Assembly (NCBI GenBank): GCA_020721745.1 | Contig: DYMC01000001.1 | Location: 1 to 34,480, forward strand | Origin: Lentisphaera sp. | GTDB taxonomy: Bacteria; Verrucomicrobiota; Lentisphaeria; Victivallales; GWF2-50-93 | Direction: 5' to 3' | Length of the DNA: 34,480 nt | In this document: positions 5,965 through 25,030 of the stretch, one piece after another | Position numbering within the stretch: position 1 is the first letter of the stretch | Layout of the letters: each line of letters opens with the position of its first letter | Translations under genes and position numbers: made by a program | The notes under the pieces: generated by a model | Told to the model about the DNA's origin: nothing | What the model saw: only the letters and a program-made list of their open reading frames with translations | The model's database searches: none

Positions 5965-7874
5965 AGCAGCCTAAACCAGTGTGTTTGGATTTTGAAACAT
6001 TCGGTATTGAGGACAGGCCCAAGTACCCGCCGATGCCCGTTGGTGTTTCGATCAAGTACCCAGGCAAGAAGGCCAGGTACTACGCCTTCGGCCATTCTGA
6101 GGGCAACAACTGCTGTTGGTCTGAAGCAGCCGCTGAGCTGGCTAAGGCCTACGCGCACAAGGACGGCGTCCTGTTCCATAACGGCAAGTTCGACGTGGAC
6201 GTGGCTGACGTCCATTTTGGTCTGGCTGTCCCCAGCTGGGAACGCGTCCATGATACCCTCTTTCTGCTGTTCCTCGACGACCCCCACCAGATTGAGCTGG
6301 GCCTGAAGCCTGCTGCGGCCCGCCTGCTCAACATGCCGGCTGAGGAGCGCGATGCTGTGGGTGACTGGCTGATTGAGCACCAGCCGGTCCCAGGCGTCAA
6401 GATCAGCAAGTCGAGGTCATCTGAGCACTACTTCGGCCGCTACATCGCCTACGCACCTGGCGGCCTTGTGGGCACGTACGCCAACGGCGACGTTGACAGG
6501 ACTGAGGCTATCTTCAACCTGCTTTGGAAGAGGACGGTTGAGCGTGGCATGTTGGCCGCCTACGACCGCGAGCGCCAGCTCATGCCCATCTTGCTGGAGA
6601 TGGAGCGCCAAGGTCTGCCCGTGGACCTCAAGCGGCTGCGCAACGATGTGGCCATGTACAACGAGTGGCGCGACAAGATCAACCTCTGGATCATCAAGAC
6701 CCTGAAGGCCAGCCCCGACATCAACCTCGATTCTGGACAGCAGCTCGTCGATGCCATGGTGCTGTCTGGCAAAGCTGATCCCGATCTGGTGCCGCGGACC
6801 CCGACTGGCAAGTTCCAGACGAACAAGGAGGCTCTGCTGCAAGGGGTCACTGACAAGGTCCTGCTGGCCATCCTCAAGTACCGCACCCAGCTGAACACCT
6901 GCCTGAACACCTTCATGCAACCCTGGCTGGCGACGGCCGAGGCCTCAGATGGTCTGATCTTCACGACCTGGAACCAGACCAAGACCCCGTCAGGCGACAC
7001 CAACGTCGGCACGCGGACTGGTCGCCTGTCATCGACGCCGAACTTCCAGAACATCCCGAAGGAGTTCCAGCCGATCTTCCACCACGAGGCGCCCGACAAG
7101 AAGCTGCCCAAGTGCCCGTTCAAGGACCTGCCTCCGCTGCCCAAGGTGCGGAGCTACATCACGCCCTTCCCCGGGCACGTGATGATCGACCGCGACTACT
7201 CGCAGCAGGAGCCTCGGATCCTCGCCCACTTCGATGGCGGCGCCCTTATGGAGAAGTACCTCGAGAACCCGTGGATTGACTTCCACGACTACGCCAAGGC
7301 GGAGCTCGAAAAGATGGGCAAGTTCTACGACCGCAAGCCGGTGAAGAACACGAACCTGGGTCTGATTTACGGCATGGGCGTGGGCAAGCTGGCTGAGCGC
7401 AACGGCATGACGGTCGAGGAGTCAGCTGAGCTGAAGAAGGCCATCTTGCAGCTGTACCCGGGGCTGCGTGACATGTACAAGGACATGAAGGTCCGCGCTA
7501 AGTTCAAGCAGCCTATCCGCACCTGGGGTGGGCGTGAGTACTACTGCGAGGAACCCAAGCTGATCAACGGGCGCATCCAGGAGTTTGACTACAAGCTCGT
7601 GAACGTGCTCATTCAAGGCTCGGCTGCCGACTGCACCAAAGCCGCGATCATCAGCTACCACGCCGCCAAGCACCCTGAGGCGAAGATCATCCTCAGCGTT
7701 CATGACCAAATCACAGTCAGCGTGCCGAAGAAGATCATGAAGACTGAGATGGAGGTGCTGCGCCAAGCCATGGAAGGGGTGGAGTTCGACGTCCCTATCC
7801 TGAGCGAAGGCTCAATTTCATCAACCAACTGGGACGAACTCCAGGATTACGACAAACGAGGAAAGATCCTATGA
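5961..7874 (+). CDS. Family A DNA polymerase with a 3'-5' exonuclease domain (T7-like, no 5'-3' exonuclease)
   Basis: Exo motifs LDFETFG, HNGKFD and YANGDVD. Pol motif A (DYSQQEPRILAH), motif B (RKPVKNTNLGLIYGMG) and motif C (SVHDQI). Confidence 0.95.
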   Translation: MKQPKPVCLDFETFGIEDRPKYPPMPVGVSIKYPGKKARYYAFGHSEGNNCCWSEAAAELAKAYAHKDGVLFHNGKFDVDVADVHFGLAVPSWERVHDTLFLLFLDDPHQIELGLKPAAARLLNMPAEERDAVGDWLIEHQPVPGVKISKSRSSEHYFGRYIAYAPGGLVGTYANGDVDRTEAIFNLLWKRTVERGMLAAYDRERQLMPILLEMERQGLPVDLKRLRNDVAMYNEWRDKINLWIIKTLKASPDINLDSGQQLVDAMVLSGKADPDLVPRTPTGKFQTNKEALLQGVTDKVLLAILKYRTQLNTCLNTFMQPWLATAEASDGLIFTTWNQTKTPSGDTNVGTRTGRLSSTPNFQNIPKEFQPIFHHEAPDKKLPKCPFKDLPPLPKVRSYITPFPGHVMIDRDYSQQEPRILAHFDGGALMEKYLENPWIDFHDYAKAELEKMGKFYDRKPVKNTNLGLIYGMGVGKLAERNGMTVEESAELKKAILQLYPGLRDMYKDMKVRAKFKQPIRTWGGREYYCEEPKLINGRIQEFDYKLVNVLIQGSAADCTKAAIISYHAAKHPEAKIILSVHDQITVSVPKKIMKTEMEVLRQAMEGVEFDVPILSEGSISSTNWDELQDYDKRGKIL

Positions 7875-8605
7875 ACAAGAAAACCATCCCGATCAAGCAG
7901 GTCACCAGCTGGTCGTTCAGCCGCTACAGCACGTACAAGCAATGCCCGTTGAAGCTGAAACTCAGCGCGATCGATCATATACGCGAGCCGGGCAATGAGG
8001 CCATGGTGCGCGGCGACGCCATCCACAAGTTGGCTGAGAAGTACATCAAGGGTGAGGGCCGCTCGTTGCCGCCTGAACTCAAGCTGTTTGCTGACGAGTT
8101 CAAGAAGCTGCGGGCCCAGTACAAGAAGAAAATCAACGGCATGGTGGTCGAAGACAACTGGGCTTTCACAAAAGATTGGTCTGAAACACAGTGGGATAAT
8201 TGGGCAGAGTGCGTTGTGCGCATCAAGATTGATTGCGCCCACCATCAGGACGACGAGACCCTCATCATCACGGACTGGAAGACGGGCAAGTTCCGCCCTG
8301 AGATGAATGAGGAGTACGTCGAGCAGCTGGAGCTCTACGCGCTGGCCGCCCTGCTTCTTCACGAGCACATTCAGCAGGTCAAGCCACGCCTCGCCTACTT
8401 GGACCTCGGCATCACATACCCTGAGGCTGGCGCTGAGCTGGTGTTCACGCGCACTGACATCCCCAAGCTCAAGAAGCTGTGGAAGAAGCGGACCAAGGCC
8501 ATGCTGAATGATAAGCAGTTCGCGCCCCGCCCGAACGACAAGTGCCGATTCTGTTTTTACCGCAACAGCAACAAGGCTGCCGGTGGCGGCCAGTGCAAAT
8601 ACTGA
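7871..8605 (+). CDS. PD-(D/E)XK nuclease, Cas4/RecB-like, with a Cys cluster
   Basis: N-terminal Cys (YKQCPLK), DWKTGK and QLELYALA core motifs, and a C-terminal CRFC...C cluster typical of 4-Cys Cas4-like exonucleases. Confidence 0.85.
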   Translation: MNKKTIPIKQVTSWSFSRYSTYKQCPLKLKLSAIDHIREPGNEAMVRGDAIHKLAEKYIKGEGRSLPPELKLFADEFKKLRAQYKKKINGMVVEDNWAFTKDWSETQWDNWAECVVRIKIDCAHHQDDETLIITDWKTGKFRPEMNEEYVEQLELYALAALLLHEHIQQVKPRLAYLDLGITYPEAGAELVFTRTDIPKLKKLWKKRTKAMLNDKQFAPRPNDKCRFCFYRNSNKAAGGGQCKY

Positions 8606-11136: not shown

Positions 11137-11538
11137 ATGACCAAGACCACCCAAGCTGACGCCGTCAAGTTCTACGCCCGCCGCGACTCCGCCACCGCGG
11201 TGCTCCGCAAAATGGGCGTCCACGCCCGCGACTACAACGCCTTCATCGAGGTGATGAGCGACGGCCAATTCGCCTGCCACATCGCTCGTGCTGAGATGTA
11301 CCTCGAGTCCCTGAAGAACCCCAAGCCTGCTGAGACCAAGGCCGCCAAGGCTGCGCGCCCCGCTGCTGGGACCAAGCGGACGGGCATCTCCGCTACGGCC
11401 CGGGCCCTGATCCTGGCCGGCAAGACCAACCAAGAGGTGTGGGCTGAGCTCAAGCAGCAGTTCGATCTTGACGATTCCAAGAAGCACTACCCCACGTGGT
11501 ACCGCTGCGAGATGAAGCGTAAAGGCCAGTTGGTCTAA
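11137..11538 (+). CDS. Hypothetical protein with an Ala/Lys/Pro linker and a conserved C-terminal domain (paralog of 11903-12544)
   Basis: C-terminal ISATARALILAGKTNQEVWAELKQQFDLDDSKKHYPTWYRCEMKRKG aligns by eye with the C-terminus of the 11903-12544 product. Confidence 0.7.
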   Translation: MTKTTQADAVKFYARRDSATAVLRKMGVHARDYNAFIEVMSDGQFACHIARAEMYLESLKNPKPAETKAAKAARPAAGTKRTGISATARALILAGKTNQEVWAELKQQFDLDDSKKHYPTWYRCEMKRKGQLV

Positions 11539-11677: not shown

Positions 11678-11913
11678 TCAGCGATCCCAATAGCATTGAG
11701 ATTCGCGACGAGAGCACCGACGAGGAGCAGCGCTTCCAGCTCTACATCAATGGCGGTCCTCGCGCAATGCTCAGCAAGAAGCATGGCACCGTGCAATTCC
11801 ACTGGCAGGTCTACGGCCCACAATACTGGCCTGGGGCCAAGGTCCTGATGCAGGGCCTGCTGGAACTGTCGGTGCTGGCTGATCAACTATATGGAGAGAA
11901 GAATGGCAAGTAA
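11674..11913 (+). CDS. Hypothetical protein (79 aa)
   Basis: ORF coupled to both neighbours. No motif recognised. Confidence 0.6.
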   Translation: MISDPNSIEIRDESTDEEQRFQLYINGGPRAMLSKKHGTVQFHWQVYGPQYWPGAKVLMQGLLELSVLADQLYGEKNGK

Positions 11914-12544
11914 AAAACCAACGCCGGGCATCATCCCGTGCTATGACCGCCAGCGCCGCACCTGCATTCAGGTTGAGCGGACTGACACCCACGTGAAGTA
12001 CATCCCGCTCGACGTCAATGAGGGCCTGCAGGTTTTGACGGCGGCGGCAAACGAGTTCGACCAGTGGTATGAGCCGATGGTCAACTACCCCGCAGAGAAG
12101 GCGTGTCAGTTGTTCCTCAACTACAGCCAGACCATCGGGGCAACCAAGGAGGCCTTGGGTTACCTGGGCCAGATTGTTAACGTGTCTAAACAGGAGGCCG
12201 ATATGGCAACCACCAATAAGACTGCGGCGACTGAGAAGGCTGCCGCCACCAAGACCGCTGCGAAGAAGGTAGCTCCCGCAAAACCTGCCGCAAAATCTGC
12301 CGCCAAGACGGCTCCGGTCAAGACAGCTAAGCCTGCTGCAAAACCAGCGGCCAAGACTGGCGAGAAGAAGACGTCTGCAGCCCAGATGTTCCAAGACCTG
12401 ATCATGCAGGGCAAGCTGACTGACGACCAGATTTTCGAGAAGGTCCAAGCTCAGTTCGGTCTGGATGAGAAGAAGCGCGGGTACACAAAATGGTATCGGA
12501 ACTATCTCAAGAAACAAGGCATGAATCCTCCTGAGGCAAAGTAG
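11903..12544 (+). CDS. Histone H1/AlgP-like protein (KPAAK-type repeats) sharing a C-terminal domain with 11137-11538
   Basis: ATG at 11903 follows ggagag. Low-complexity TAAKKVAPAKPAAKSAAKTAPVKTAKPAAKPAAKT is followed by SAAQMFQDLIMQGKLTDDQIFEKVQAQFGLDEKKRGYTKWYRNYLKKQG. An in-frame internal ATG at 12203 has an aggagg RBS. Confidence 0.7.
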   Translation: MASKKPTPGIIPCYDRQRRTCIQVERTDTHVKYIPLDVNEGLQVLTAAANEFDQWYEPMVNYPAEKACQLFLNYSQTIGATKEALGYLGQIVNVSKQEADMATTNKTAATEKAAATKTAAKKVAPAKPAAKSAAKTAPVKTAKPAAKPAAKTGEKKTSAAQMFQDLIMQGKLTDDQIFEKVQAQFGLDEKKRGYTKWYRNYLKKQGMNPPEAK

Positions 12545-12647: not shown

Positions 12648-13460
12648 ATGGCCAAATCCAAAGAAGTTTCACGCGACTCCCGCGACTACGACACCACCCA
12701 GCTACGTGAGGCAGGCCACGGCCGCACGCTTCACAGAGATTATTCCGCACATTTTTTCCGCTGGAGCTTTGCCCGCCGCTTCATCTCGGCCAAGGACAAC
12801 GTCCTCGAGGTCGGCTGCGGCGAGGACAAGCCGCTCAGCAAGATCCTGACTGGCGGAGCTGCTGCTCACGTTGGCCACTACACCGGCGTGGATCTGAACA
12901 AGCTCAAGCCGTCTAACAACCAGCGTCTGGAGTTCCACGGCGAGTTCAACTTCGTCGAGCGCTACAAGGAGTTGCTCAAGAAGCGTCCCGAGGGTTGGGA
13001 TGTCGTCGTTAACTACGAGGTCATCGAACACATGAAGGTCGAGCACGGTGCCAACCTGCTCAAGGCCATGTTCGCCTGCACCAAGCCGGGCGGTGTCCTG
13101 CTGCTCTCGACCCCGGTCTACGATGGCAAGCGCCACGCGGCCAACCACATCCACGAGTACACGGTGCCTGAGCTGCAGAGCTACATCGAGAAGGCTGGCT
13201 ACGTGGTCGAGCGCCGTTTCGGCACGTTCATGGACATCAAGCACATCGGCAAGGCCGACCCCACCGGCTGCAGCAAGGCGGCTGTGCTGGAGATTCGCAA
13301 GGCTTTGGAGCAGTACTTTGACAACGACGCCATCAGCAACATCTTTGGCCCGCTGTACGAGGACCATGCTCGCAACAACCTCTGGGTCTGCCGCAAAGCC
13401 GCTGACGGCAAGCCGGTCAAGCCTGCTCGCAAGACCACCACGAAAGGAGCGCCGTTCTGA
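12648..13460 (+). CDS. Class I SAM-dependent methyltransferase (small-molecule/UbiG-like type, not a recognisable DNA MTase)
   Basis: Motif I VLEVGCGEDKP, an acidic post-I residue (GVDLN), NYEVIEHM, and a KPGGVLLLSTP motif. No DPPY or PCQ DNA-MTase motifs. Confidence 0.85.
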   Translation: MAKSKEVSRDSRDYDTTQLREAGHGRTLHRDYSAHFFRWSFARRFISAKDNVLEVGCGEDKPLSKILTGGAAAHVGHYTGVDLNKLKPSNNQRLEFHGEFNFVERYKELLKKRPEGWDVVVNYEVIEHMKVEHGANLLKAMFACTKPGGVLLLSTPVYDGKRHAANHIHEYTVPELQSYIEKAGYVVERRFGTFMDIKHIGKADPTGCSKAAVLEIRKALEQYFDNDAISNIFGPLYEDHARNNLWVCRKAADGKPVKPARKTTTKGAPF

Positions 13461-13858
13461 TGATTGGCAATGTCGCTGAGTTCCACGAAAAGTTCGGCCT
13501 CCCTATGGGGGCTGTTGATCAACTCATGAACGACCCGGCAGCTCAGGAGTTCCGGGTCAAGTTCTTGCAAGAGGAGCTAGACGAGCTCAAGGAGGCGCTC
13601 GCCGAGGGCAACCGCGTGAAGGTGTTCGACGCTCTGCTGGATCTGGTCTACGTAGCCTACGGCACGGCGCTGTTCGCTGGCATCGATGCAGCTCAGTGGC
13701 ACGCTGGCATGGACGCCGTCCACTCGTGCAACATGGCCAAGGTCCGTGTGGCCAAGGCTGAGGACAGCAAGCGGGGCAGCGCCTTCGATGTCAAGAAGCC
13801 GGAAGGCTGGACTGGCCCCGAGGCGCGCCTGGAGGAGATTCTGTCATGGACCAAGTGA
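13460..13858 (+). CDS. MazG/HisE-like all-alpha NTP pyrophosphohydrolase (candidate dCTPase/dUTPase)
   Basis: LQEELDELKEAL (EExxE) and FDALLDLVYVAYG metal-binding helices. 132 aa. TGATG overlap with the methyltransferase gene. Confidence 0.8.
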   Translation: MIGNVAEFHEKFGLPMGAVDQLMNDPAAQEFRVKFLQEELDELKEALAEGNRVKVFDALLDLVYVAYGTALFAGIDAAQWHAGMDAVHSCNMAKVRVAKAEDSKRGSAFDVKKPEGWTGPEARLEEILSWTK

Positions 13859-14757
13859 GCTGCAAGCTGACGATCTTCGAGGGCCCGGACGGTGGCGGCA
13901 AATCGACTGCCGCCCAGTCCTACGCCCAGATGACCGGCGCCAAGTACGTGCACTTCACCTCGCTGCCTCGCGTCGGCAAGAACCTCGGCCGCATGTACGT
14001 CGAGGCCATGATGCCGGCGCTGCTTGGCTACCAGGACGTGGTCTTCGATCGCTGCTGGCTGAGTGAGATGCCGTACGGCGTCGCGTTCCGTGAGGGCAAG
14101 GATCGCTTGACGTCGGCCAGCCGCCGGATGCTCGAGCGGCTGGCCATGCGGTGCGGCGCTGTTGTGGTCAAGTGCCAACCCAGCTGGGAGACCGTCAAGG
14201 CCAACTACCTCAGCCGCAAGCACATCGAGATGCTGGACAACGAGTACCAACTCAAGACGGTCTACGACCTCTATGCTGAGCAGCCGACGGACTTGCCCTT
14301 GGTGGACTACGACTACACGAGGGGCGACCTGTTCGAGGTCAACAAGGTGGCTCTGCTGATCGATGGCCTGCGTATGCGCCAACACCCGCTTGGTCTGGCC
14401 TCGGCTGGCAACTGGGACGCCCGGATCGTGCTGATCGGCGAGTCGTTTGCTGAGCGCGAGGACAACGATCCCTGGTACCAGTGGCCCTTCGCCTCGTTCA
14501 GTGACGAGGGTTGCAGCCAGTGGTTGGCCGACCAACTGGACCTGATCGAGGTTGGCGAGGACGACATCCTCTGGCTGAACTCCGATCAGGACCTGTCCGT
14601 GCTGTATGACCTGGCGCCTGAGCGCATCATTGCCATGGGCACGGAGGCCTACCAGCAGCTGTACAAGCTCAAGATCAAAGCCGCTTCGGTCCAGCATCCC
14701 CAGACCTGGAAGCGCTTCAACTTCAAGCAGCGCTACCCGTTGCTTGACCTCATCTAA
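13846..14757 (+). CDS. Fusion: thymidylate-kinase-like P-loop dNMP kinase (N-terminal) + degenerate uracil-DNA-glycosylase-superfamily domain (C-terminal)
   Basis: The N-terminus has LTIFEGPDGGGKST (P-loop) and FDRCWLSEMPYG (TMK DR motif). The C-terminus (~aa 175-303) has IVLIGESFAERED...WPFAS...GCSQWL, resembling the family-4 UDG motif A (GEAPG..E...G.PF.G..G..L), and SVQHPQTW, resembling motif B (HPS). Confidence 0.75.
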   Translation: MDQVSCKLTIFEGPDGGGKSTAAQSYAQMTGAKYVHFTSLPRVGKNLGRMYVEAMMPALLGYQDVVFDRCWLSEMPYGVAFREGKDRLTSASRRMLERLAMRCGAVVVKCQPSWETVKANYLSRKHIEMLDNEYQLKTVYDLYAEQPTDLPLVDYDYTRGDLFEVNKVALLIDGLRMRQHPLGLASAGNWDARIVLIGESFAEREDNDPWYQWPFASFSDEGCSQWLADQLDLIEVGEDDILWLNSDQDLSVLYDLAPERIIAMGTEAYQQLYKLKIKAASVQHPQTWKRFNFKQRYPLLDLI

Positions 14758-14767
14758 GGAGAACAAC

Positions 14768-15553
14768 ATGCAAGACTTTTCACGCACTTGGCTTGAGGCC
14801 GTCAACGACATCTTGACCAACGGTGACCTCGTGGCACCGCGCGGCAAGATGACCCGTGAGATTCCGCAGCGCACCATCGTGGTGAACATGCGGAAACCCG
14901 TGCTCCGCGTGCCCGACCGCAGCCTGAGCTACAAGTTCATGGCGGCCGAGGCCTTCTGGATCCTGACTGGTGACGACCGGGTCGAGACGATCGCCCCGTA
15001 CAACAGCCGCATCAAGGACTTCAGCGACGACGGCGAGCGCTTTTTCGGCGCCTACGGCCCCAAGATCGTGGCCCAGCTGCCCTACATCATCGAGAAGCTG
15101 CGGGCCGATGAAAACAGCCGCCAAGCTGGCCTGACGATCTGGCGCGAGTGCCCGCCCCAGACGAAGGACGTGCCCTGCACGGTGGCCATCTTCTTCAACC
15201 TCCGTGGCGGCAAGCTCAATGCCCACGTGTTCATGCGGTCGAGCGACGTCTGGCTGGGCGTTCCCTACGACGTCTTCAACTTCAGCATGCTGAGCCACCT
15301 CGTCTGCGGCCTGCTGAATGGGCACCGACTGGCCGCTGATGCCGTGTCGCCTGGCAGGCTGTTCCTGACGGCGGCCAGTAGCCACCTGTACGAGACCAAC
15401 TGGGAGGACGCGAAGCTGTGTCTGGCCAGCCAGGTGCTCGATCAGGTTGAGACGCCCAAGCTGCTGTGGAACGACCCGGCCTACCTGATGTCGGAGCTCA
15501 AGATGATCCGTGACAGTCGGCCGGGTGACGCCTGCCGTTGGTGGGAGCTGTAA
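14768..15553 (+). CDS. ThyA-fold pyrimidine C5 hydroxymethylase/methylase, predicted dCMP-specific (T4 gp42-like)
   Basis: aaggag RBS. Catalytic Cys in VPCT (codon at 15176-15178). FMRSSDVWLGVPYDVFN aligns with E. coli ThyA YQRSCDVFLGLPFNIAS. Asp (15269-15271) replaces the dUMP-specifying Asn. SSHLY matches DTHLY. Confidence 0.8.
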   Translation: MQDFSRTWLEAVNDILTNGDLVAPRGKMTREIPQRTIVVNMRKPVLRVPDRSLSYKFMAAEAFWILTGDDRVETIAPYNSRIKDFSDDGERFFGAYGPKIVAQLPYIIEKLRADENSRQAGLTIWRECPPQTKDVPCTVAIFFNLRGGKLNAHVFMRSSDVWLGVPYDVFNFSMLSHLVCGLLNGHRLAADAVSPGRLFLTAASSHLYETNWEDAKLCLASQVLDQVETPKLLWNDPAYLMSELKMIRDSRPGDACRWWEL

Positions 15554-15554
15554 C

Positions 15555-16022
15555 ATGAGACCCAGCCGCGACGAATGGGCCCTGAAACTGGCCCTGCTGA
15601 CTGCCCAACGAACGACCTGCCGCCGCCGAGCAGTTGGCTGCGTGCTGCTGAACGCTCGTGGCCACGTGCTGGCCACCGGGTACAACGGCGTCGCGGCTGG
15701 CCTGCCTCACTGCAACCACCATGACCCGTACTCCGAGACGGGGTTCCCCCACGCCTGCTCAGGAGCCAACTCACCGAGCGGGACGAACCTCGACGGCTGC
15801 CAGGCGATCCACGCTGAGCAGAACGCTATGCTCCAGTGCAAGGACGTCTACAGCATCCACACGTGCTACGTGACGACCAGCCCGTGCATGACCTGCGTCA
15901 AGCTGCTGCTCAACACCAGCTGCGAGAGGATCGTCTTTGTGGAGGAGTACCCGCACTCGGCGGCTCGGGAGCTCTGGGCAGGCACCGGACGGGCCTGGGA
16001 GCAACTTCTTGTGGAGATTTGA
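15555..16022 (+). CDS. dCMP deaminase (zinc-dependent cytidine/deoxycytidylate deaminase fold)
   Basis: HAEQNA and SPCMTCVKLL zinc-binding motifs. ATG lies 1 nt after the stop of the upstream gene. Confidence 0.9.
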   Translation: MRPSRDEWALKLALLTAQRTTCRRRAVGCVLLNARGHVLATGYNGVAAGLPHCNHHDPYSETGFPHACSGANSPSGTNLDGCQAIHAEQNAMLQCKDVYSIHTCYVTTSPCMTCVKLLLNTSCERIVFVEEYPHSAARELWAGTGRAWEQLLVEI

Positions 16023-16133: not shown

Positions 16134-16553
16134 TTACTTCGTAGCGCCGCGGACCTTCTCCCATGACCGTCCTGCGACGTAGCCAGTCATCACGACACCA
16201 AAGAGGGTTAGCACGGGCTCTGGGATGGCCAGCATCCAGGCCTTGAACCCGTCCGTGAAGGCGGCCGCAGCCTCTGGCCGGAAGATGGTCAAAATACCCA
16301 TCGGGATGCTCCACAAGAGTATCACGTAGACCACATACAGGAACGACGGTCTGGCTCGGCTGGTCCAAGGGTCTGCGGACTTGGCTTCGGCAATGATGGC
16401 GCTGAGCTGCGTCTTCATCTCGTCCAGGTCACCTGACTGCTGCATCTTGAGCAACTCCAGTTGGGCCTTCGCCTTCTGTTCAGGGTCTGGGAATATCTTG
16501 TCAATGAGCTTGGTTCCAATGCTGAAGATTCCGCTGAGTGTGACCGGGTCCAT
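16134..16553 (-). CDS. Holin, 3-TM GTA-type family (DUF3154-like)
   Basis: Start MDPVTLSGIF... The N-terminal LIDKIFPDPEQKAKAQLELLKMQQ and W.S.ARP motifs plus C-terminal hydrophobic helices fit the GTA-type 3-TM holin family. TAATG overlap with the endolysin gene. Confidence 0.7.
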   Translation of the reverse strand: MDPVTLSGIFSIGTKLIDKIFPDPEQKAKAQLELLKMQQSGDLDEMKTQLSAIIAEAKSADPWTSRARPSFLYVVYVILLWSIPMGILTIFRPEAAAAFTDGFKAWMLAIPEPVLTLFGVVMTGYVAGRSWEKVRGATK

Positions 16554-16936
16554 TATGGGTACTCCTTCCAAGGTAATTGCCAATGTGGTCCGTCTTTGAA
16601 CGTCGCCCAATCGCCTCCCCACTCGACTGGTATCTGTAACTCAGCGGCGGCCTGCTTGACGGCAACAGCAAGCTTGTGGTAAAGAGGCCAGTCCCAGCGA
16701 ACTGAGCCGGCCACGTAAGCACCGAGATCGACGGCATGACCAGTCAGGTGGCGCGATCGCATGGTCTGACTGGCGCCCGCCTTGACGAGTTGCTCTTGGC
16801 GAGTCTTGGAGCGAACTCCTTCGAGCACGACAAAGTCAATCTCAGTGATCTCAATGGCGCGTTCAACAACCTTGACGAGGTCCGGGTGAACCCCAGCAAG
16901 GCGGTCTCGCGACTTTTTGCTGAGGGTGTAGATCAT
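16553..16936 (-). CDS. Endolysin, peptidase M15 family (L-alanyl-D-glutamate / VanY-like zinc peptidase)
   Basis: SRHLTGHAVDL (H..D zinc ligands) and DGPHW motifs. 127 aa. Confidence 0.85.
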   Translation of the reverse strand: MIYTLSKKSRDRLAGVHPDLVKVVERAIEITEIDFVVLEGVRSKTRQEQLVKAGASQTMRSRHLTGHAVDLGAYVAGSVRWDWPLYHKLAVAVKQAAAELQIPVEWGGDWATFKDGPHWQLPWKEYP

Positions 16937-17187
16937 CTTTTGTCCGCCTTCTTGTCAATCTTGTCTTCAATTTTGTCGAGCTTGGCAAACAGTGTGGTCA
17001 TATGGGACATAAATTCATCCTTCTTGACGTAGTCGCCAGCCACCAAGATCTCAATCTCAGAGACCTTCTTCGTGAGCTCCTTGTCAGTAACCTGCAGGTC
17101 CTTGACAGATTGCCAAACTGCACTGAGCAAGAACCCGATGAGAGTTCCGAGGCCACCTAGCAGCCAATTTATAAGTGTTTGGTCCAT
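16933..17187 (-). CDS. Membrane protein with one N-terminal TM helix and a coiled-coil C-terminus (holin/antiholin or i-spanin-like)
   Basis: Start MDQTLINWLLGGLGTLIGFLLSAVW with a ggggag RBS. The C-terminus is charged and helical. ATGA overlap with the endolysin gene. Confidence 0.6.
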   Translation of the reverse strand: MDQTLINWLLGGLGTLIGFLLSAVWQSVKDLQVTDKELTKKVSEIEILVAGDYVKKDEFMSHMTTLFAKLDKIEDKIDKKADKR

Positions 17188-17305
17188 TCCCAGTCTCCCC
17201 TTCTTTATCACGCGTTAGTTCTTGAGTTACTCCGCACCAGTTGCATTCCTCGCCGTCTTCAACGTCAAGCAAGCACTTTTCGGAATTACAGTAGTGAGTC
17301 CACAT
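17084..17305 (-). CDS. Small Cys-rich hypothetical protein (possible zinc ribbon) overlapping the next gene
   Basis: Strong RBS aaggag 6 nt before the ATG at 17305. The N-terminus has C-x4-C-x9-C-x2-C (YCNSEKC...ECNWC). The last ~100 nt overlap the gene at 16933-17187 in another frame. Confidence 0.4.
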   Translation of the reverse strand: MWTHYCNSEKCLLDVEDGEECNWCGVTQELTRDKEGETGNGPNTYKLAARWPRNSHRVLAQCSLAICQGPAGY

Positions 17306-17328
17306 TATTAGCTCCTTGTTATCGATTC

Positions 17329-19350
17329 TTACCAGGTAATTGCATCTTTATTGTAGCGCAGCCACGCGCGGCAGATTCTGTCCTTGTTACCAGCATCTGT
17401 AGTGAATCGCGCTATGCTACCATCTATGTAAGCCAAAGTCATGGGCAACGATTCGCCGCTGTTACCTTTGTAAAACGCGGCAGCAGCCATCACGTAGCCG
17501 CCCCCATTCGCTGTGCCATGTGAAATATCAAAATTGCCCGATGCATCAACAACCCCACCATATTCGCATTCGACATACACGTCTCCGTGCCGTGTTAGTG
17601 GTGAGTTTACGACCTTATTCATGCAGTTGAAGAACTTGTTACTATCCAGAACGTCATTGGCAAACCAGCCGACCAGGTTCTGCAAATAGATGGCATTGCC
17701 ACAGGATACGAAATTATTTTCACTGATCGTAACTTCCGTGGATGTTGCGCCAACCACAACAGCCCCCTGATCGGCAGCTTGCAAGCCAAGAGTCAGAGTG
17801 TTTCCTGTTACCCGCACTCCTGTTGAGTTCCGAATAAGTAAGCGGCGTCCAAAGGCCGTGTTGTTGGCAATAAGACCGTAGCTGCTAGCAAAGTCAGCCC
17901 AGCTTCCGCCAGCTTCAGCATAAGTACCGGCGTTCACGGCGTTGCCGATGACCTGAACATTCTCAATGGCACCAACTACGATGTCTGTGCCAGCGTTATC
18001 GTGGAGAGTGTTGCTGCCGATAATCACATATTTGCATCCACCAATTGAGATGCCAATCCCATCGCCAACCGACCCGTCATGATCTGTACTGCCACAGTTA
18101 TAGATTGTGTTACCAACGATCGTGACATAGCCCGTCCAGCCATCATCGCTGCCATCATATCGTATCCCAGAGCGTTTACACTTAGCCACAGTGTTGCTAA
18201 CTATCTTAACGTTCCGGGGCCCTTTTCTTCCTTTATATGCAAACCATCCCATGTTGATGCCGTCGCCGCAAGCAACAATTTCATTACTGGAGATTAGTAA
18301 CGTGTGATCCTGATTAGCGTCTGTACCTTCCGGCCCTGCACCTACCCCAAGATCGCATTTATAAATGTAGTTGCCAACGATGCAGCCGCGCGCATCGTTA
18401 TTAAATGCGATGCCACCATCACCGCTATTTTTTGCCGTGTTGCCAGTTACAATAAAGTAGCCGTTGTTGAAGTTGTAAATGTCACCACCGCATTGTTCGG
18501 TATAGTTCCCACTGACGTAAGCCTCACCGTAATTTAACTGTATCGAGTGCATGCGTTGCCCAAGGTTTGTAGGGATGTTCAAGAATCGGTTGTTTGTGAT
18601 ACTCAACCCAGACATCGTCCCAGATGTGGTCGCAGAAGATATGCAGGCAGCTTCACCCATTGGAGAACCTTCTGTTACGAGTCCTGAAGCATCAAATGTT
18701 ATGCCGTGGATGGTGCTGTTTGCCGAACCGTCTGGGATGTAAATTTGATAATATGACCCAGATTTGGCTTTCAAAGTCCCACCATCTCCAACAAGACCTA
18801 CGCCAGATGGTAATGTGACAGTCCCGGCCGTGATAGTTTTACCTGACAAAGATAACCACTTGTGTCCAGAATTCAGCGCCGCTTGCAGATATGCAGTCTC
18901 ATCAGAACCATCGCCCTTAACACCAAAATCACACACACTGACAACATCAGCATTTTTCTCATGCTGCGTTCTGGCAACGCCACCAGGCAATAGTGACTTG
19001 ACTCCAACCAGGGCGTCGCCAAGAGTTTGGTTACTAGTATTTGATAAATCAGAGAACAGGGGAGGAACTGATGGCGCATAGAACACTACACGCTTGTTTT
19101 TGTCGGCGACGATAATGGAAAAATCCATTACAGCTGTAAACACTCTAGCCGGAGTTCCGTTGCGCACAATGTAGCCATTTGACGTACGAAGAGGTTGTGC
19201 TGCAGGCAGTGTACCAGCCTCATCCCAGAAGACGGCGATGGGGTTGGTCTCAGGGTTCTGGCCGGCAGCGCCAATGTAGATATTGCCGTCGTCAAGAGGA
19301 CCTCCCTCAAGACCAAAAAACTGCTGAAATGGCGACTGAACTTGAAACAT
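17329..19350 (-). CDS. Tailspike / tail fibre with a pectate-lyase-type right-handed beta-helix (probable polysaccharide depolymerase)
   Basis: 673 aa. VSVCDFGVKGDGSDETAYLQAAL is the Pectate_lyase_3 signature. Repetitive Gly/Asn/Ile-rich beta-helix coils follow. The N-terminus (~80 aa) resembles conserved tailspike head-binding domains. Confidence 0.85.
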   Translation of the reverse strand: MFQVQSPFQQFFGLEGGPLDDGNIYIGAAGQNPETNPIAVFWDEAGTLPAAQPLRTSNGYIVRNGTPARVFTAVMDFSIIVADKNKRVVFYAPSVPPLFSDLSNTSNQTLGDALVGVKSLLPGGVARTQHEKNADVVSVCDFGVKGDGSDETAYLQAALNSGHKWLSLSGKTITAGTVTLPSGVGLVGDGGTLKAKSGSYYQIYIPDGSANSTIHGITFDASGLVTEGSPMGEAACISSATTSGTMSGLSITNNRFLNIPTNLGQRMHSIQLNYGEAYVSGNYTEQCGGDIYNFNNGYFIVTGNTAKNSGDGGIAFNNDARGCIVGNYIYKCDLGVGAGPEGTDANQDHTLLISSNEIVACGDGINMGWFAYKGRKGPRNVKIVSNTVAKCKRSGIRYDGSDDGWTGYVTIVGNTIYNCGSTDHDGSVGDGIGISIGGCKYVIIGSNTLHDNAGTDIVVGAIENVQVIGNAVNAGTYAEAGGSWADFASSYGLIANNTAFGRRLLIRNSTGVRVTGNTLTLGLQAADQGAVVVGATSTEVTISENNFVSCGNAIYLQNLVGWFANDVLDSNKFFNCMNKVVNSPLTRHGDVYVECEYGGVVDASGNFDISHGTANGGGYVMAAAAFYKGNSGESLPMTLAYIDGSIARFTTDAGNKDRICRAWLRYNKDAITW

Positions 19351-19361
19351 ATGGACTCCTT

Positions 19362-21260
19362 TTATTCACCGAGAGCCCGCTTGACGCGGGCGCGAGTTTT
19401 CGCATCTTTGATGCTTTTTGTTGCCAATCGAAAGCTTGTCATGATTGGTGCAGGCACACCCGCCGTGCCACTGATGGCGATGTCCATCATGCCTGCAAGC
19501 ACGCTGGCCGTGTTGCTTGTATTGACCGCGCCAGCCGGAGTAGTAAGCACGTCCTTGGCCACGTCGTTGATGGTGCGTAGCTGTTCAGCGCCTTTCTTGC
19601 CGAACACAAAGTCGAGCTTGCCAGATTTGTCGAGCTGGGTGATAACGCGGTCGAGCTGCGCTGGCGACAAGACGGCATTGCCAAGCTCATCACGGCCCAC
19701 GCCCTTGGTGGCCTCGTCACGTATGAACTTGAGCGTACCGCCTTGCAGTTCCTTCCAAGCTTGCCGGCCATTCTGCCCCTCGGTCTGAAGCAGCCGGCGA
19801 ACTTGGCGGACCGTATCAAGCGACGTCGATGGGTCGATGACTGCGCGGCGAAGCACGTCTTCCATGGCTATGGCTCTATCATTAGAGCCGCGCTTCTGGC
19901 CAAGCAGGTTCTTCACCAGACCGATGTTCTCGTAGTCGTTGGCAAACCGAGCACGTGCTGCACGAGCCTGCTTGTACAAGTTGCCGCCCAGACCTTCGGT
20001 CGATGCGTCGATGAGGCTGCGCATCTGAGAAGCTTGCATGATGTTGGTCGGCTCAGCGTTGGTGGCACCGCTAATCGAGCGACGGAACAACTCAGCCGTC
20101 TTCAACGAGACAGGTCGGGCAATCAATGTGCCATCAGGCGCCTCAATGGCTACACCAAGCTGCAGAGCTTTAGCTCGAGCTGCCTTGAGCACATTGGCCA
20201 CCTCAGCTTCAGGCGCGTTGTCAACCAGATGCTGAACCACGGCGTCGAGTTTGACAGGGGCTTCCATCTCGCCGGCCTTCTCAGCCTCTTTGTACAAGGT
20301 GCGGATGCGCGTCTTGTCACGGGCTGCCCGGTCACGCAGCGCCTTGTCCACGGCCAGGCCTATGGAGCGCAGGTCAGGAGCCTCAGCTCCAGTCATGTCA
20401 ATGAAGGCCTCGAGGTTCTGCTGAAGCTGCTTATTCTGGATGGCAAAGCGCTCGCGGATGGGCGCCCCAACCTCAGGTAGCTTGGCGGTCTCGCGCTCAA
20501 AGCGCTGCTGCTCGAACTGACGAGTCTTCTGGCCTTCAGTCAGCTTGATGGGCACTGGCAACTCATTGGCCTTAGCTTGGCGCAGAGTAGCCATGTCCAC
20601 ACCAGCTGAACCGCCAGATGCCTGGGTGCCAGGGGTTGGGCTCTTGGAAGTTGCGCCAGGCATCATCTCACGAATCGGCTCAGTAACTTTGGCCGCGACC
20701 TGACCGGCTCGCTTGGTGGCAGCCACAACAGGAGCTGCGACACGACCGGCAGTTGCCGCCACCGCTGGCTGCGCCATCTTGGCACTAGTAGAGACGGCTC
20801 CGATAGGTCCAACAACTGGGATGACAGGAGGGACGTTCTGGAGCACTTCGCCGACGGCTTGTACTTGCTCCTGACCTGACTGCGTGCGGGGCGTGTAGGT
20901 CAGTGCCTGAGCTCCTTGCATGGCTGACTTCTCAACTAGGCTGGCCGCTTCTCGGCTGCCGAACTGGCCAGACAATATCTGCTCGGCCAGACCTTTCAAC
21001 GCGCCGGCGATCATGCCAATTGTTCCGCCAGTGGCACCAGTGCCAATTGTCAGGGCAGCTTCACCAGCGCCGACAATCTTCTCACCAAGGGATGGCTCAA
21101 CGTACTCTTGGGTCGTGCCAGGCACAATCATGTCTGGTATCTGGTTTTTGGGATCTTGGCGAGCCTTGACAAGCACGGCAGCCAAGCGTCGAGCGGCATC
21201 AAGGTCACCCGCCTTGTCGGCGTTGACCAAGGCCAGCTCAAGTTCTTGGAGTGTTGCCAT
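19362..21260 (-). CDS. Internal virion / DNA-ejection protein (large, P22 gp16/gp20-position analog)
   Basis: 632 aa, Ala/Gly/Gln-rich. Assigned by its position between the other ejection-type genes and the tailspike in a P22-like gene order. Confidence 0.6.
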   Translation of the reverse strand: MATLQELELALVNADKAGDLDAARRLAAVLVKARQDPKNQIPDMIVPGTTQEYVEPSLGEKIVGAGEAALTIGTGATGGTIGMIAGALKGLAEQILSGQFGSREAASLVEKSAMQGAQALTYTPRTQSGQEQVQAVGEVLQNVPPVIPVVGPIGAVSTSAKMAQPAVAATAGRVAAPVVAATKRAGQVAAKVTEPIREMMPGATSKSPTPGTQASGGSAGVDMATLRQAKANELPVPIKLTEGQKTRQFEQQRFERETAKLPEVGAPIRERFAIQNKQLQQNLEAFIDMTGAEAPDLRSIGLAVDKALRDRAARDKTRIRTLYKEAEKAGEMEAPVKLDAVVQHLVDNAPEAEVANVLKAARAKALQLGVAIEAPDGTLIARPVSLKTAELFRRSISGATNAEPTNIMQASQMRSLIDASTEGLGGNLYKQARAARARFANDYENIGLVKNLLGQKRGSNDRAIAMEDVLRRAVIDPSTSLDTVRQVRRLLQTEGQNGRQAWKELQGGTLKFIRDEATKGVGRDELGNAVLSPAQLDRVITQLDKSGKLDFVFGKKGAEQLRTINDVAKDVLTTPAGAVNTSNTASVLAGMMDIAISGTAGVPAPIMTSFRLATKSIKDAKTRARVKRALGE

Positions 21261-22555
21261 TAGTGGGCTCCTTGGGTATACTTCTTGACAAGCGCATCGA
21301 TGTCGGCACCAGAAGTGCTCACGGCAGGCGTGTCAGGGATGGTCTCAGGCATGCCTGACCGCGCGGTCAAGTTTTTGCGTGCCTTTATAATCAAACGCTG
21401 GGCCTCTCTGACGTTCTCGAGCAAACGCTCAGGAGACTGCTTCAAGCTGAAGTTCTGCAGAGCAGCTTGGAGCTTCTCGCCTTCAGCGTTAGACAGTGCG
21501 CCCATGCCCTTGATGATGGGTATCTGGGCCATGAACGACTGTGAGCCAAGCGTCTCAACCAGAGCCTCGAAGTCAGCCGTGTCCTGTCTGAGTGTGGGCA
21601 TGCGCGACGACACTGGGCCGGCAGCTGAATCAACCACGCCAATCGGCGTCTTCAGGATGCGGTCAGCCGTGTTGAGCATATTGTCCATGCTCGCGCGGGC
21701 GGCCTCAAGGTCAGCTGCCTTGGCGCGTACAGCCTCATCCCGTTTCTGGATCATGTCTTGCAACTTAAGTTGGTATTCCTCGCGCTTAATCTGGTTGCTC
21801 TCGCGAGCGATCTGGGCGTTGAGAGCGGCGATTGAAGCATTCTGTTTGGCGATCTTGATGTCCTCTTGTATCTTGGTGATGTCCCAACCTTTTTTCTGCA
21901 GGTCAAGCACGGCGTTGGCCTCGGCGAACTTGGCGCTGATCGCCGCTTTCTGGGCCTTGGCTTGTGACTCAGTCAGCTTCGACGGGTGGAGCTCAGCATC
22001 ACGCTGCTCACCTTGGAGCTTGGTGAACGTCTCGACGAACTTGTCAGGACCCATGGCCGAAGCAAGGAAGAGACCGACCGAGGTCTTCGCCGTCTCAGGG
22101 CTGATCTTGATCAGCATGCCCAGGTCCTCAAGCGTCTTGGCTTCACGCTCTTGGCCTGAGTTGCGGTAGGCCGCAGCTTGGTCAGTCAGCAGCTGCTGGG
22201 CGATCTCAGGCTTGTTGGATTGGAGTGCGGCGTAAACCTGCGTGGCTTGGCCCAGACGTGAATCCTTCTGCTCGGTGCTCAGCACGTCATAGGTGCGCTT
22301 GAAGCTCTCGCTCAGGCTGGGGTACTTGACCATCATGCTGGCCAGAGCCGACGGTGTCGGGTTCTTGGACAGAGCGCCAAGGTCAATCTCCATCTGGGCC
22401 TGTGTCTCACGAGCTTTCTGCAGGTCGAGGGCTTTCTGCTCGGCCAGGTTTCGCTGCGACATCATGTAGCCGATGTTGAGTGCATTTTGAATGCCGTCCA
22501 TGACCGACTGAGTCGGGTCAGGGACGTTGAGCATGTAGTTGAATGGTTGTGCCAT
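21260..22555 (-). CDS. Internal virion / DNA-ejection protein (coiled-coil rich)
   Basis: Start MAQPFNYML 2 nt after the upstream stop. 431 aa with long coiled coils. TAATG overlap with the next gene. Confidence 0.6.
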   Translation of the reverse strand: MAQPFNYMLNVPDPTQSVMDGIQNALNIGYMMSQRNLAEQKALDLQKARETQAQMEIDLGALSKNPTPSALASMMVKYPSLSESFKRTYDVLSTEQKDSRLGQATQVYAALQSNKPEIAQQLLTDQAAAYRNSGQEREAKTLEDLGMLIKISPETAKTSVGLFLASAMGPDKFVETFTKLQGEQRDAELHPSKLTESQAKAQKAAISAKFAEANAVLDLQKKGWDITKIQEDIKIAKQNASIAALNAQIARESNQIKREEYQLKLQDMIQKRDEAVRAKAADLEAARASMDNMLNTADRILKTPIGVVDSAAGPVSSRMPTLRQDTADFEALVETLGSQSFMAQIPIIKGMGALSNAEGEKLQAALQNFSLKQSPERLLENVREAQRLIIKARKNLTARSGMPETIPDTPAVSTSGADIDALVKKYTQGAH

Positions 22556-22557
22556 GG

Positions 22558-23202
22558 TTAGAATACCTTCATTGCTTTGAGCGTGGCGACATTGCCTATG
22601 GTCCCGCCGATATTCCCCCACATTTGGGCTTGCGCTTGTCCTTGGGCCAATGCCGCACCTGCCGCGGCCTGACCTTGTTGAGTCAACGCGTTGCCGATGT
22701 TGGCGCCAGTCTGCTGAGCTGCAGCTGCTTGACCAGCGGCCGACGCCTGACCGAGACCTGAGATGGTGCCGAGTTTACTGAACTGGGACTCGATCAATTG
22801 ATTCAACAATTGTGGTCGGAATTGAGCAAGGGTGGCTTGGACATTGCCGCCACGCAGCCCACCAGTCGCTGAGGCATTCTGCAAGATGGCGTTCTCACCT
22901 TGTTGCATCATCGAAGCAAACTGGGGCGATGATTCGATACCGGCAATTGCCTGGCGCTGAGCTTCTGGCCCAGCAAGACCGAGCAGTTCTTGCTGACCAC
23001 CAATTGCTTGTACACCAGCGCTCACGTATGGAGCCAGAAGTTTCTGGATCGCGTCAAACTGGCGCCGCTGCTCCTCGATCGATGACCGACTCGAGGTAAT
23101 CTGCGCGTCGGCGGCATGTTCAGCTGCGTCAGACTGGGCTTTGCTAGCCATGACGCCAGTAATGACTGAACCGGCCACGACGGCCGTTGCGATTCCGCTC
23201 AT
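22558..23202 (-). CDS. Internal virion / ejection protein with an N-terminal TM helix and a Gly/Ala/Gln-rich C-terminus
   Basis: MSGIATAVVAGSVITGVMA hydrophobic N-terminus. aaggag RBS. ATGA overlap with the SET-domain gene. Confidence 0.6.
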   Translation of the reverse strand: MSGIATAVVAGSVITGVMASKAQSDAAEHAADAQITSSRSSIEEQRRQFDAIQKLLAPYVSAGVQAIGGQQELLGLAGPEAQRQAIAGIESSPQFASMMQQGENAILQNASATGGLRGGNVQATLAQFRPQLLNQLIESQFSKLGTISGLGQASAAGQAAAAQQTGANIGNALTQQGQAAAGAALAQGQAQAQMWGNIGGTIGNVATLKAMKVF

Positions 23203-24053: not shown

Positions 24054-24137
24054 CACTTCACTCCTTGGTGGGACTTGTGAGCTGCTGGCGGCTCGAGTCT
24101 CGGCTCAGCTGAGATGGTATCTGCCATGAATCTATAG

Positions 24138-24489: not shown

Positions 24490-24500
24490 GGTGGATCTCC

Positions 24501-25028: not shown

Positions 25029-25030
25029 GG

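Follow-up and report, generated by a model that had tools for sequence, protein, structure and literature searches.

A 34,480-nt stretch of contig DYMC01000001.1 (positions 1 to 34,480 of the forward strand; hereafter the window), from the GenBank assembly GCA_020721745.1 assigned to Lentisphaera sp., carries a compact five-gene operon of nucleotide metabolism within phage DNA. In order of transcription, its genes encode an S-adenosylmethionine (SAM)-dependent methyltransferase (MT), a pyrophosphatase of the MazG/PRA-PH type, a kinase fused to a domain with the fold of uracil-DNA glycosylases (UDGs), a homologue of the thymidylate synthase ThyA, and a deaminase. Overall, we consider it the best explanation, and a probable one, that the operon acts on the nucleotide pool and exchanges dC in the phage DNA for a cytosine substituted at C5, most likely 5-hydroxymethylcytosine (5hmC).

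The five co-directional open reading frames (ORFs) fill positions 12648 to 16022 of the + strand, each at the coordinates given in an initial annotation of the window; neighbours overlap by 1 nt and 13 nt at the first two junctions and are 10 nt and 1 nt apart at the last two (Table 1). The most plausible start of each gene is preceded by a Shine-Dalgarno-like sequence. The real start of the ThyA-like gene is ATG 14768, with TAAGGAGA before it, and a longer ORF beginning at 14606 was discarded; a longer ORF start was likewise discarded for the deaminase gene, which begins with ATG 15555, one base past the ThyA-like stop. Neither a sigma-70-like promoter nor a + strand terminator-like site was found inside the cluster. 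ORFs, starts, and short junctions agree with the initial description of five tightly coupled genes at the end of the replication arm. The glycosyltransferase reported missing there was indeed not found among the window ORFs scanned, nor was a dihydrofolate reductase (DHFR) or ThyX.

Table 1 The five genes of the operon and the two domains of the kinase-UDG fusion (positions in the window)
Feature	Position	Strand	Remark
MT, class I SAM-dependent methyltransferase, 270 aa	12648..13460	+	start preceded by GAAAGAGG
MazG/PRA-PH-type all-alpha NTP pyrophosphohydrolase, 132 aa	13460..13858	+	start preceded by GAAAGGAG
Kinase-UDG fusion, 303 aa	13846..14757	+	start preceded by GGAGGAG
N-terminal P-loop kinase domain of the fusion, about aa 1-172	13846..14361	+	TMK/dNMP-kinase-like
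C-terminal UDG-fold domain of the fusion, about aa 173-303	14362..14757	+	minimal, family-4-like
ThyA-fold dCMP C5-transferase, 261 aa	14768..15553	+	predicted 5-hydroxymethyl-dCMP synthase
dCMP/dCTP deaminase family enzyme, 155 aa	15555..16022	+	Pfam, PHROG, zinc motifs

Predicted C5 chemistry of the ThyA homologue

The ThyA homologue matches Pfam Thymidylat_synt (PF00303; 2.8e-21, 76 bits versus a cut-off of 24.3), has the CMP 5-hydroxymethylase MilA as its best PDB match (9.2e-16), and aligns at the catalytic residues Cys146, Glu58, and Tyr94 (E. coli ThyA numbering, used throughout for this protein). Rules that relate residues to products in this fold were published in 2026 by the Weigele and Peters groups. 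N177D stands for dCMP specificity and D169N for flavin-dependent 5-hydroxy-dCMP synthases, while position 143 is bulky and hydrophobic (L143) with methyl products and acidic with hydroxymethyl products, as in T4 gp42 and MilA (PMC13326640). The window enzyme shares 22% identity with T4 gp42 and carries the same residue at five of five positions (D143, C146, T147, D169, D177). Among the comparison enzymes, the Xp12 5-methyl-dCMP synthase has N143/P147 and E. coli ThyA has L143/H147/N177. At position 177, PYDVF of the window is aligned with E. coli PFNIA and T4 RNDYA; at position 143, three residues before the catalytic Cys, where an acidic side chain would let water in, KDVPC is aligned with T4 SDFMC and E. 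coli ALAPC. One MAFFT run moved the L143 column by one gap, and we took the ungapped register to the catalytic Cys, which gives Asp.

Asp169 is kept within the motif RSSDVW, so the signature of 5-hydroxy-dCMP synthases of the RB69 gp48 type is absent. The signature of Xp12-type 5-methyl-dCMP synthases is absent as well, with Asp143 in place of the Xp12 Asn and no DHFR among the scanned ORFs. Among the related loci, D143/T147 is found in 63 of 64, the exception being L058, and Asp replaces N177 in all 63 that are readable at this position (L062 ends before it). By these residue rules, the ThyA homologue is likely a 5-hydroxymethyl-dCMP synthase rather than a thymidylate synthase, an Xp12-type methylase, or a 5-hydroxylase, and the dCMP-hydroxymethylase signature named in the initial annotation is borne out by the match to gp42.

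We also considered formation of 5-hydroxycytosine followed by O-methylation to 5-methoxycytosine, an attractive idea because UbiG-type enzymes methylate phenolic hydroxyl groups, and rejected it on the grounds that Asp169 is kept in the window and in 64/64 aligned related loci. Two of the relatives depart from the common form of the ThyA-like gene. The exceptional locus L058 (IMGVR_UViG_3300049569_000086), which encodes MazG, kinase-UDG, ThyA-like, and deaminase proteins and no MT, combines Leu143/His147 with Asp177 and probably represents a 5-methylcytosine (5mC) variant of the module. In L068 (IMGVR_UViG_3300005937_000429, ~6894-8429), an intein-like insertion of ~270 aa interrupts the ThyA-like gene right after the catalytic Cys (KDIPC/LAGS...HNC/T).

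The pyrophosphatase matches Pfam PRA-PH (PF01503; 3.8e-12, 46.9 bits versus a gathering cut-off of 21.3) and phrog_671, annotated as 'nucleotide pyrophosphohydrolase' (2e-24). It would hydrolyse dCTP (and dUTP), thereby excluding dCTP and supplying dCMP. The deaminase matches Pfam dCMP_cyt_deam_1 (PF00383; 2.1e-19, 69.7 bits versus a cut-off of 25) and phrog_174 (6.7e-36), and its zinc motifs HAE and PCxxC can be read in the sequence as IHAEQNA and SPCMTC; candidate substrates are dCMP, dCTP, or a modified dCTP. Together with the kinase, these proteins parallel the four nucleotide-level roles of phage T4, namely the dCTPase gp56, the hydroxymethylase gp42 with its diagnostic residues, the dNMP kinase gp1, and the deaminase Cd. 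The two systems differ in that T4 gp56 is dUTPase-like whereas the dCTPase of the window has a MazG/PRA-PH fold, in that the window kinase is thymidylate kinase (TMK)-like and fused to a UDG domain, and in that all window genes lie in one operon. T4 also encodes alpha/beta-glucosyltransferases, instead of which the window has a SAM methyltransferase.

Cultured relatives, restriction evidence, and genomic setting

The five genes recur in unchanged order in Stenotrophomonas phage AXL3 (gp31-gp27), with 46-72% protein identity to the window. They are annotated as methyltransferase (gp31), hydrolase (gp30), 'thymidylate kinase' of 327 aa (gp29), 'thymidylate synthase' (gp28), and dCMP deaminase (gp27). 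Pseudoxanthomonas phage PW916 and Caudoviricetes ctUtU524 share the identical five-gene order (46-75% protein identity with AXL3 included), and in both the kinase-UDG gene was left unannotated. AXL3 DNA was uncut by 35 of 37 restriction enzymes. TasI (AATT) and Tru1I (TTAA) alone cut it, while all 35 enzymes tested with G/C in their sites, including KpnI and the AhdI isoschizomer Eam1105I, did not, from which its authors concluded that G/C bases carry an unknown modification (PMC7504290). AXL3 furthermore encodes a ThyX (gp50; PMC7504290), and its ThyA homologue is therefore not needed for dTMP. With the dCMP/hydroxymethylase residues of the ThyA homologue on one side and the refractory G/C sites of a phage with the same genes on the other (PMC7504290), the T4-like logic proposed initially holds up. 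It is very likely that a modified C5-cytosine replaces C in the phage DNA.

The core of the module has counterparts in the contigs with C5-modified cytosine that were recovered by MetaGPA. In these contigs, dCMP-deaminase genes co-localise with a ThyA homologue, dCMP is the predicted substrate of most of these homologues, PRA-PH is among the top domains co-localised with the pair, and many of the deaminases prefer 5m- or 5hm-dCTP (bioRxiv 10.1101/2024.12.05.627091). The combination of deaminase, dCMP-type ThyA, and PRA-PH is thus an already published marker of modified-cytosine phages. The same approach led to a carbamoyltransferase that tailors 5hmC to 5-carbamoyloxymethylcytosine (PMC8670742). 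These systems resemble the window in their core and in the pairing of a dCMP hydroxymethylase with a group-transfer enzyme for the 5-hydroxymethyl oxygen; they differ in that this enzyme is a carbamoyltransferase there and an O-methyltransferase-like protein in the window. No methyltransferase or UDG-fold partner is mentioned in the MetaGPA and 5hmC-tailoring literature cited here. The initial annotation had presented a modified-cytosine operon with two unexplained components; the two components stand, but the core is a published signature (bioRxiv 10.1101/2024.12.05.627091) and loses its novelty.

The gene order of the window recurs in about 60 IMG/VR loci and four GenBank phage records, so the arrangement is not a matter of chance. 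In the 64 IMG/VR loci of a scan anchored on the kinase-UDG gene, for which relatives' genes were called on the + strand only, the genes typically run from polymerase, nuclease, exonuclease, and SNF2 helicase through two paralogous Lys-rich proteins and, optionally, the MT and a C5-DNA-methylase-like protein to MazG, kinase-UDG, ThyA-like protein, and deaminase. A megablast search with the DNA of the region matched the MT gene in two phages only, and relationships were traced at the protein level. AXL3 and PW916 are siphoviruses, and ctUtU524 was deposited as one, whereas the structural arm of the window is that of a P22-like podovirus; the nucleotide module, shared between such different arms, has therefore moved between morphotypes. 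An unrelated podovirus, ct3Et533, encodes an MT (31% identity), a pyrophosphatase, a 187-aa kinase without UDG domain, a ThyA homologue, and a deaminase, followed by a polymerase.

Upstream of the operon, the window encodes a family-A DNA polymerase, a PD-(D/E)XK nuclease, an exonuclease, and an SNF2 helicase. The 3' end of the operon meets a lysis cassette of the - strand head-to-head, and holin, endolysin, tailspike, and a P22-like head/ejection module follow on that strand. The P22-like structural arm extends over positions 16134-34298 (-) and includes portal, major head protein, Hc3, a gp7-like ejection protein, tail accessory factor gp4, and tailspike. The replication arm opens with a 699-aa protein with DUF3854 (Toprim-like) and DUF5906 domains (930-3029, +), which is probably a primase or primase-helicase and matches in position an AXL3 gene annotated as primase. 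Directly before the operon lie two paralogous proteins with Ala/Lys/Pro-rich, histone-H1-like linkers (11137-11538 and 11891-12544, +) and a common C-terminal motif, K..Y..WYR...K..G, for which Pfam and PHROGs give no function. In most related loci, this family is encoded directly upstream of the MT, or of MazG where the MT is absent.

The methyltransferase and the kinase-UDG fusion

The MT matches Pfam Methyltransf_23 (1.7e-14), and its Pfam matches are confined to the small-molecule-type families Methyltransf_11/12/23/25/31. No DNA-methylase Pfam family (N6A/N4C/C5) was matched and no PPY or PC motif occurs in the sequence, in keeping with its first description as a non-DNA-type enzyme. Ranked against the PDB, the profile of the MT family retrieved the Hen1 methyltransferase (1.6e-8), UbiG (4.9e-8), plant HEN1, human HENMT1, and juvenile-hormone acid O-methyltransferase (JHAMT). 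In NCBIfam, UbiG was matched by 20/20 and Hen1 by 16/20 members of the MT family, all far under the family cut-offs. Four residues that are invariant across the MT family (E124, E127, H128, H167) align with the EVIEH motif and His positions of Hen1, which are its metal ligands, and the Hen1 pattern of E-x-x-E-H plus His is thus present. The match of the MT to the Hen1 model TIGR04074 scores 33.6 bits with a cut-off of 340 and is restricted to model positions 284-450; the MT lacks the N-terminal domain of Hen1 and its full-length architecture, and the scan of window ORFs revealed neither a Pnkp nor an RNA ligase as a partner. By sequence, the MT belongs to neither the Hen1 nor the UbiG family and is O-methyltransferase-like. 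It ends in a Lys-rich, probably disordered tail (window 13398-13460) with a terminal APF, an ending found in 30 of 80 MT-anchored loci, and this tail could serve in nucleic acid binding or partner docking.

Among 185,579 species genomes, the MT occurs on six phage-sized contigs of metagenome-assembled genomes only. It is the best-conserved protein of the module, with 70-80% identity versus 35-45% for MazG and 40-50% for the UDG domain. The scan anchored on the MT gave 80 viral loci, and linkage was counted on those 70 that extend 3.5 kb or more downstream of it; a ThyA homologue lies within 6 kb in 68 of them. In relatives without MT, its slot is taken by genes for proteins like M6 gp55 (PF18723), C5-methylase-like proteins (PF00145), an unknown family (c27), a pyridoxal phosphate-dependent enzyme, or glycosyltransferase-like proteins. 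This tight linkage with ThyA and the filling of the MT slot by other candidate tailoring genes make the MT a likely dedicated member of the pathway. A conserved core beside an exchangeable cassette is also the pattern of thymidine hypermodification clusters (PMC8989533), and it is our main argument that the MT works on the modified base.

The PF18723 (HMUDK_hel) protein (3.2e-24) has its M6 homologue in the ORF that immediately follows the 5-hydroxymethyl-deoxyuridine (5-hmdU) DNA kinase gene, which suggests post-replicative hypermodification of 5hmC in the lineages that encode it. Its genes are found in nine MT-lacking loci (~5 independent lineages) and in 0/80 loci with MT. The protein, which also matches phrog_2396, is encoded at L039:864-1982 and in L046, L051, L053-57, L065, and L068. 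In several relatives, a C5-cytosine DNA-methylase-like gene (PF00145, 3.8e-11; motifs TNPPC and QNRPR) lies between MT and MazG (L031:4252-5571, L035:4138-5481, L036:2282-3349, L047:4077-5429, L050:4534-5595, L059, L140-L148). Such a gene is odd in this setting, since no cytosine should be left with a free C5, and its product may catalyse a different chemistry on 5hmC.

In the fusion protein, the kinase domain has a P-loop (GPDGGGKST) and a DRC motif that are readable from the sequence, and it matches phrog_761, annotated as 'thymidylate kinase' (7e-16). Its scores in protein families are weak, with 14 bits for Pfam Thymidylate_kin (cut-off 27) and 20.8 for TIGR00041 (cut-off 83). The AlphaFold model of the full-length fusion has a pLDDT of 87.8, and Foldseek matches its N-terminal half to YorR (6.6e-7) and to thymidylate kinases (1e-5 to 1e-6). 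A tblastn search against the M6 region for similarity to the 5-hmdU DNA kinase gp54 was empty at E<=1, and the fusion has no Pfam match to PF18723, which sets it apart from the 5-HMUDK proteins. A dNMP kinase is required for a C5-modified dCMP pathway (PMC13326640). Given this need, the TMK-like fold and motifs, and the lack of 5-HMUDK similarity, we favour a dNMP kinase that would act on 5hm-dCMP.

Foldseek searches with the full-length fusion were dominated by kinase matches, and a domain-only model (residues 173-303, pLDDT 80) was used for the C-terminal domain. The top 36 PDB matches of this model all belong to the UDG superfamily, either family 4 or UdgX. The best match is 1ui0 (E-value 7.8e-5, probability 1.00, TMq 0.59), and TMq ranges from 0.54 to 0.60 for 1ui0, 1l9g, 1vk2, and UdgX. 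The sequence profile of the domain found no UDG match in the PDB, and PF03167 matches 7 of 35 of its homologues. Aligned by hhalign with 1ui0, whose sequence was confirmed to be identical to the PDB chain, the domain pairs GESFA with GEGPG, PF with PF, Asn with Asn89, and His-Pro with His155-Pro. It resembles family-4 UDGs such as T. thermophilus UDGA and UdgX in its fold and in these Gly-Glu, Pro-Phe, Asn, and His-Pro positions. It differs from them in its length (131 versus ~200 aa), in GESFA for GEGPG, in its fusion to a kinase, and in the absence of the four Fe-S Cys ligands together with the segment that bears them; HPQ is present, and the motif Glu varies among homologues. We thus assign it the family-4 fold only, and do not file it as a family-4 member. 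Of the 'degenerate UDG-fold domain' described initially, the fold is retained, but the term degenerate goes too far for a domain in which all four motif positions align, even with the Fe-S Cys lost and the Glu variable. We favour a role as a pyrimidine-binding or base-flipping module.

The UDG-like domain family comprises 955 clusters at 50% identity (E <= 1e-3), and its best matches are mostly proteins of 300-340 aa that carry the domain C-terminally, in fusion with the kinase. Kinases without the domain are encoded by ct3Et533, L066, and L070, and a stand-alone UDG-like domain by a Ralstonia jumbo phage. We also considered the fusion as a cytosine analogue of 5-HMUDK plus aGPT-Pplase and rejected this, as the fold differs, similarity to M6 gp54 is lacking, and no PF18723 or aGPT Pfam matches were obtained; aGPT-Pplases have a helix-hairpin-helix (HhH) fold and not a UDG fold (PMC8989533). 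The thymidine hypermodification systems of M6, ViI, and PaMx11 share with the window a hydroxymethylpyrimidine core with a variable cassette and a kinase together with a glycosylase-type fold. They differ in the base, which is uracil there and cytosine here, in the missing similarity to the 5-HMUDK M6 gp54, and in PF18723, which the window lacks.

Proposed pathway and alternative explanations

By analogy with T4 gp56, gp42, gp1, and Cd, the MazG/PRA-PH enzyme would convert dCTP to dCMP, which keeps dCTP from the polymerase and feeds the ThyA step. The ThyA homologue would then transfer the methylene group of methylene-tetrahydrofolate onto C5 of dCMP, and attack by water would give 5hm-dCMP. 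Phosphorylation to 5hm-dCDP by the TMK-like kinase and to the triphosphate by a host NDP kinase would be followed by incorporation by the phage family-A polymerase, and the deaminase would channel some of the cytosine nucleotides into dUMP/dTMP synthesis. The MT might O-methylate the 5-hydroxymethyl group, in the nucleotide or in DNA, so that 5-methoxymethylcytosine or some similar derivative is formed. Possible tasks of the UDG-fold domain are to anchor the kinase on DNA or at the replisome, or to guard against bases that are unmodified or deaminated.

We infer the substrate and product of the MT, as well as any final base other than 5hmC. The closest relatives of known structure are hydroxyl-activating O-methyltransferases with a metal site, which fits methylation of the 5-CH2OH group, and Hen1-like 2'-O-methylation of RNA fits these relatives equally well. 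Action of the MT on the modified cytosine is a serious possibility that falls somewhat short of probable, and 5-methoxymethylcytosine as its specific product is rather doubtful. Combined into one proposal, a metal-dependent phage O-methyltransferase would make 5-methoxymethylcytosine as an undescribed hypermodification, the UDG domain would work on DNA, either by flipping out 5hmC or by removing or recognising unmodified C/U so that modified DNA alone survives, and relatives would swap tailoring enzymes. This proposal is tentative. Literature searches returned no report of methoxymethylcytosine in phage DNA. A weak hint of a base bulkier than 5hmC comes from XbaI and XmnI/PdmI, the only enzymes of the AXL3 panel that partially cut T4gt DNA, since AXL3 DNA resists both.

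Several points weigh against the reading developed here. Two or three residues are the basis for the product assigned to the ThyA homologue, the rule for L143 is a correlation, and the Xp12 methylase itself has Asn at position 143, which is not bulky and hydrophobic. With partial cleavage of T4gt DNA by XbaI and XmnI/PdmI as its means of distinction, the AXL3 panel barely separates 5hmC from bulkier adducts. Metal sites of the Hen1 type bind the cis-diol of ribose, whereas the hydroxymethyl group is an aliphatic alcohol without vicinal hydroxyl, and the MT may thus be a 2'-O-methyltransferase of RNA 3'-ends. The MT is not obligatory, since in ~20 related loci the core occurs with no MT within 6 kb. 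The variable motif Glu makes glycosylase activity of the UDG domain doubtful. Lastly, L074 and L076, the MT and ThyA-like proteins of which are 96% and 93% identical to those of the window, lack the kinase-UDG gene, and the fusion is therefore dispensable or replaceable. In its place they have a 133-aa ORF (L074:2869-3270 and in L076) that matches the C-terminal half of phrog_18404, a two-domain 'hydrolase' PHROG. The N-terminal half of this PHROG is matched by the MazG protein of the window. A 94-aa DUF3310 protein (PF11753, 1.3e-16) is encoded in the window as well (3591-3875, +); the PHROGs that it matches are annotated as nucleotide kinases, and we take them to be T7 gp1.7-like. This protein could act as a second nucleotide kinase, which may explain the absence of the kinase-UDG gene from close relatives.

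Alternatively, plain 5hmC could be the final base, with the MT as a Hen1-like RNA 3'-terminal 2'-O-methyltransferase or another small-molecule methyltransferase that merely shares the early operon and serves an unrelated end such as RNA repair or anti-ribotoxin defence, and with the UDG domain in a structural or replisome-tethering role. The prominence of Hen1, HEN1, and HENMT1 among the best MT matches, the invariance of the four Hen1 metal-ligand positions, and the ~20 core loci without MT all speak for this possibility, and the AXL3 restriction pattern is compatible with it. A tethering role also has precedents in the poxvirus UDG, a polymerase processivity subunit (a weak structural match), and in PDB 9qhs, a family-4 UDG domain fused to DNA polymerase I. 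We nevertheless consider it unlikely, as the MT-ThyA linkage persists in sipho- and podoviruses whose genomes otherwise differ, UbiG matches the MT as well as Hen1 does, and MT-lacking relatives carry other candidate DNA-tailoring genes. The lack of a Pnkp or RNA ligase among the window ORFs scanned, the missing Hen1 N-terminal domain, and the low Hen1 score (33.6 versus 340 bits) likewise argue against this reading.

A less probable alternative follows Xp12, in which the ThyA homologue would make 5-methyl-dCMP, 5mC would replace C, and the deaminase would convert 5m-dCTP to dTTP. The window resembles Xp12 and the other Pamexviruses in the dCMP-specific ThyA homologue, with Asp in place of N177 in both enzymes, in its position beside a deaminase and a pyrophosphatase, and in the presence of a glycosylase-fold protein in the cluster; the 5mC modules of Xp12 and AXL1 consist of DHFR, deaminase, methylase, pyrophosphatase, and an Endo III-like protein. 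The preference of many such deaminases for 5mdCTP (bioRxiv 10.1101/2024.12.05.627091) and the methylase-like L143/H147 enzyme of L058, within the same module, also agree with this scheme. However, Asp143/Thr147 of the window are those of T4 gp42 and not the Asn/Pro of Xp12, in which position 143 is non-acidic, the glycosylase-like protein has an HhH fold, and the cluster contains neither methyltransferase nor kinase. Dihydrofolate is a product of reductive methylation, and a DHFR is encoded by every 5mC Pamexvirus, next to the methylase in Xp12 and AXL1, whereas none was found among the window ORFs scanned. Xp12 DNA, which contains 5mC, is cut to completion by KpnI and at least in part by AhdI, and T4gt DNA, which contains 5hmC, is cut by neither enzyme (PMC7653180); AXL3 DNA resists KpnI and Eam1105I. 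AXL3 moreover has ThyX for dTMP. A 5mC product is therefore improbable.

Ordinary thymidylate salvage (dCMP to dUMP to dTMP to dTDP) without DNA modification, the annotation given in the AXL3 and PW916 papers and one for which all five families have counterparts in normal nucleotide metabolism, is very improbable in view of the Asp in place of the dUMP-specificity determinant Asn177 in all readable related loci, the ThyX and refractory G/C sites of AXL3, and the match of the module to the experimentally derived modified-cytosine signature (bioRxiv 10.1101/2024.12.05.627091).

Modifications of phage DNA decide its vulnerability to restriction enzymes, CRISPR nucleases, and type IV systems, and have repeatedly been a source of enzymes for epigenetic sequencing. 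The module studied here is widespread, with hundreds of 50%-identity clusters for the kinase-UDG fusion alone, and is present, mis-annotated as thymidylate salvage, in cultured therapy-candidate phages against Stenotrophomonas and Pseudoxanthomonas. Since these include a phage with the identical cluster and demonstrably modified DNA (AXL3), the question of the final base is directly testable. The module offers two candidate families for new nucleic acid chemistry, a phage-only O-methyltransferase-like enzyme and a minimal, kinase-fused UDG fold without Fe-S cluster ligands. If our proposal is true, its core and alternative tailoring enzymes would constitute a combinatorial family of cytosine hypermodifications, parallel to the thymidine pathways.

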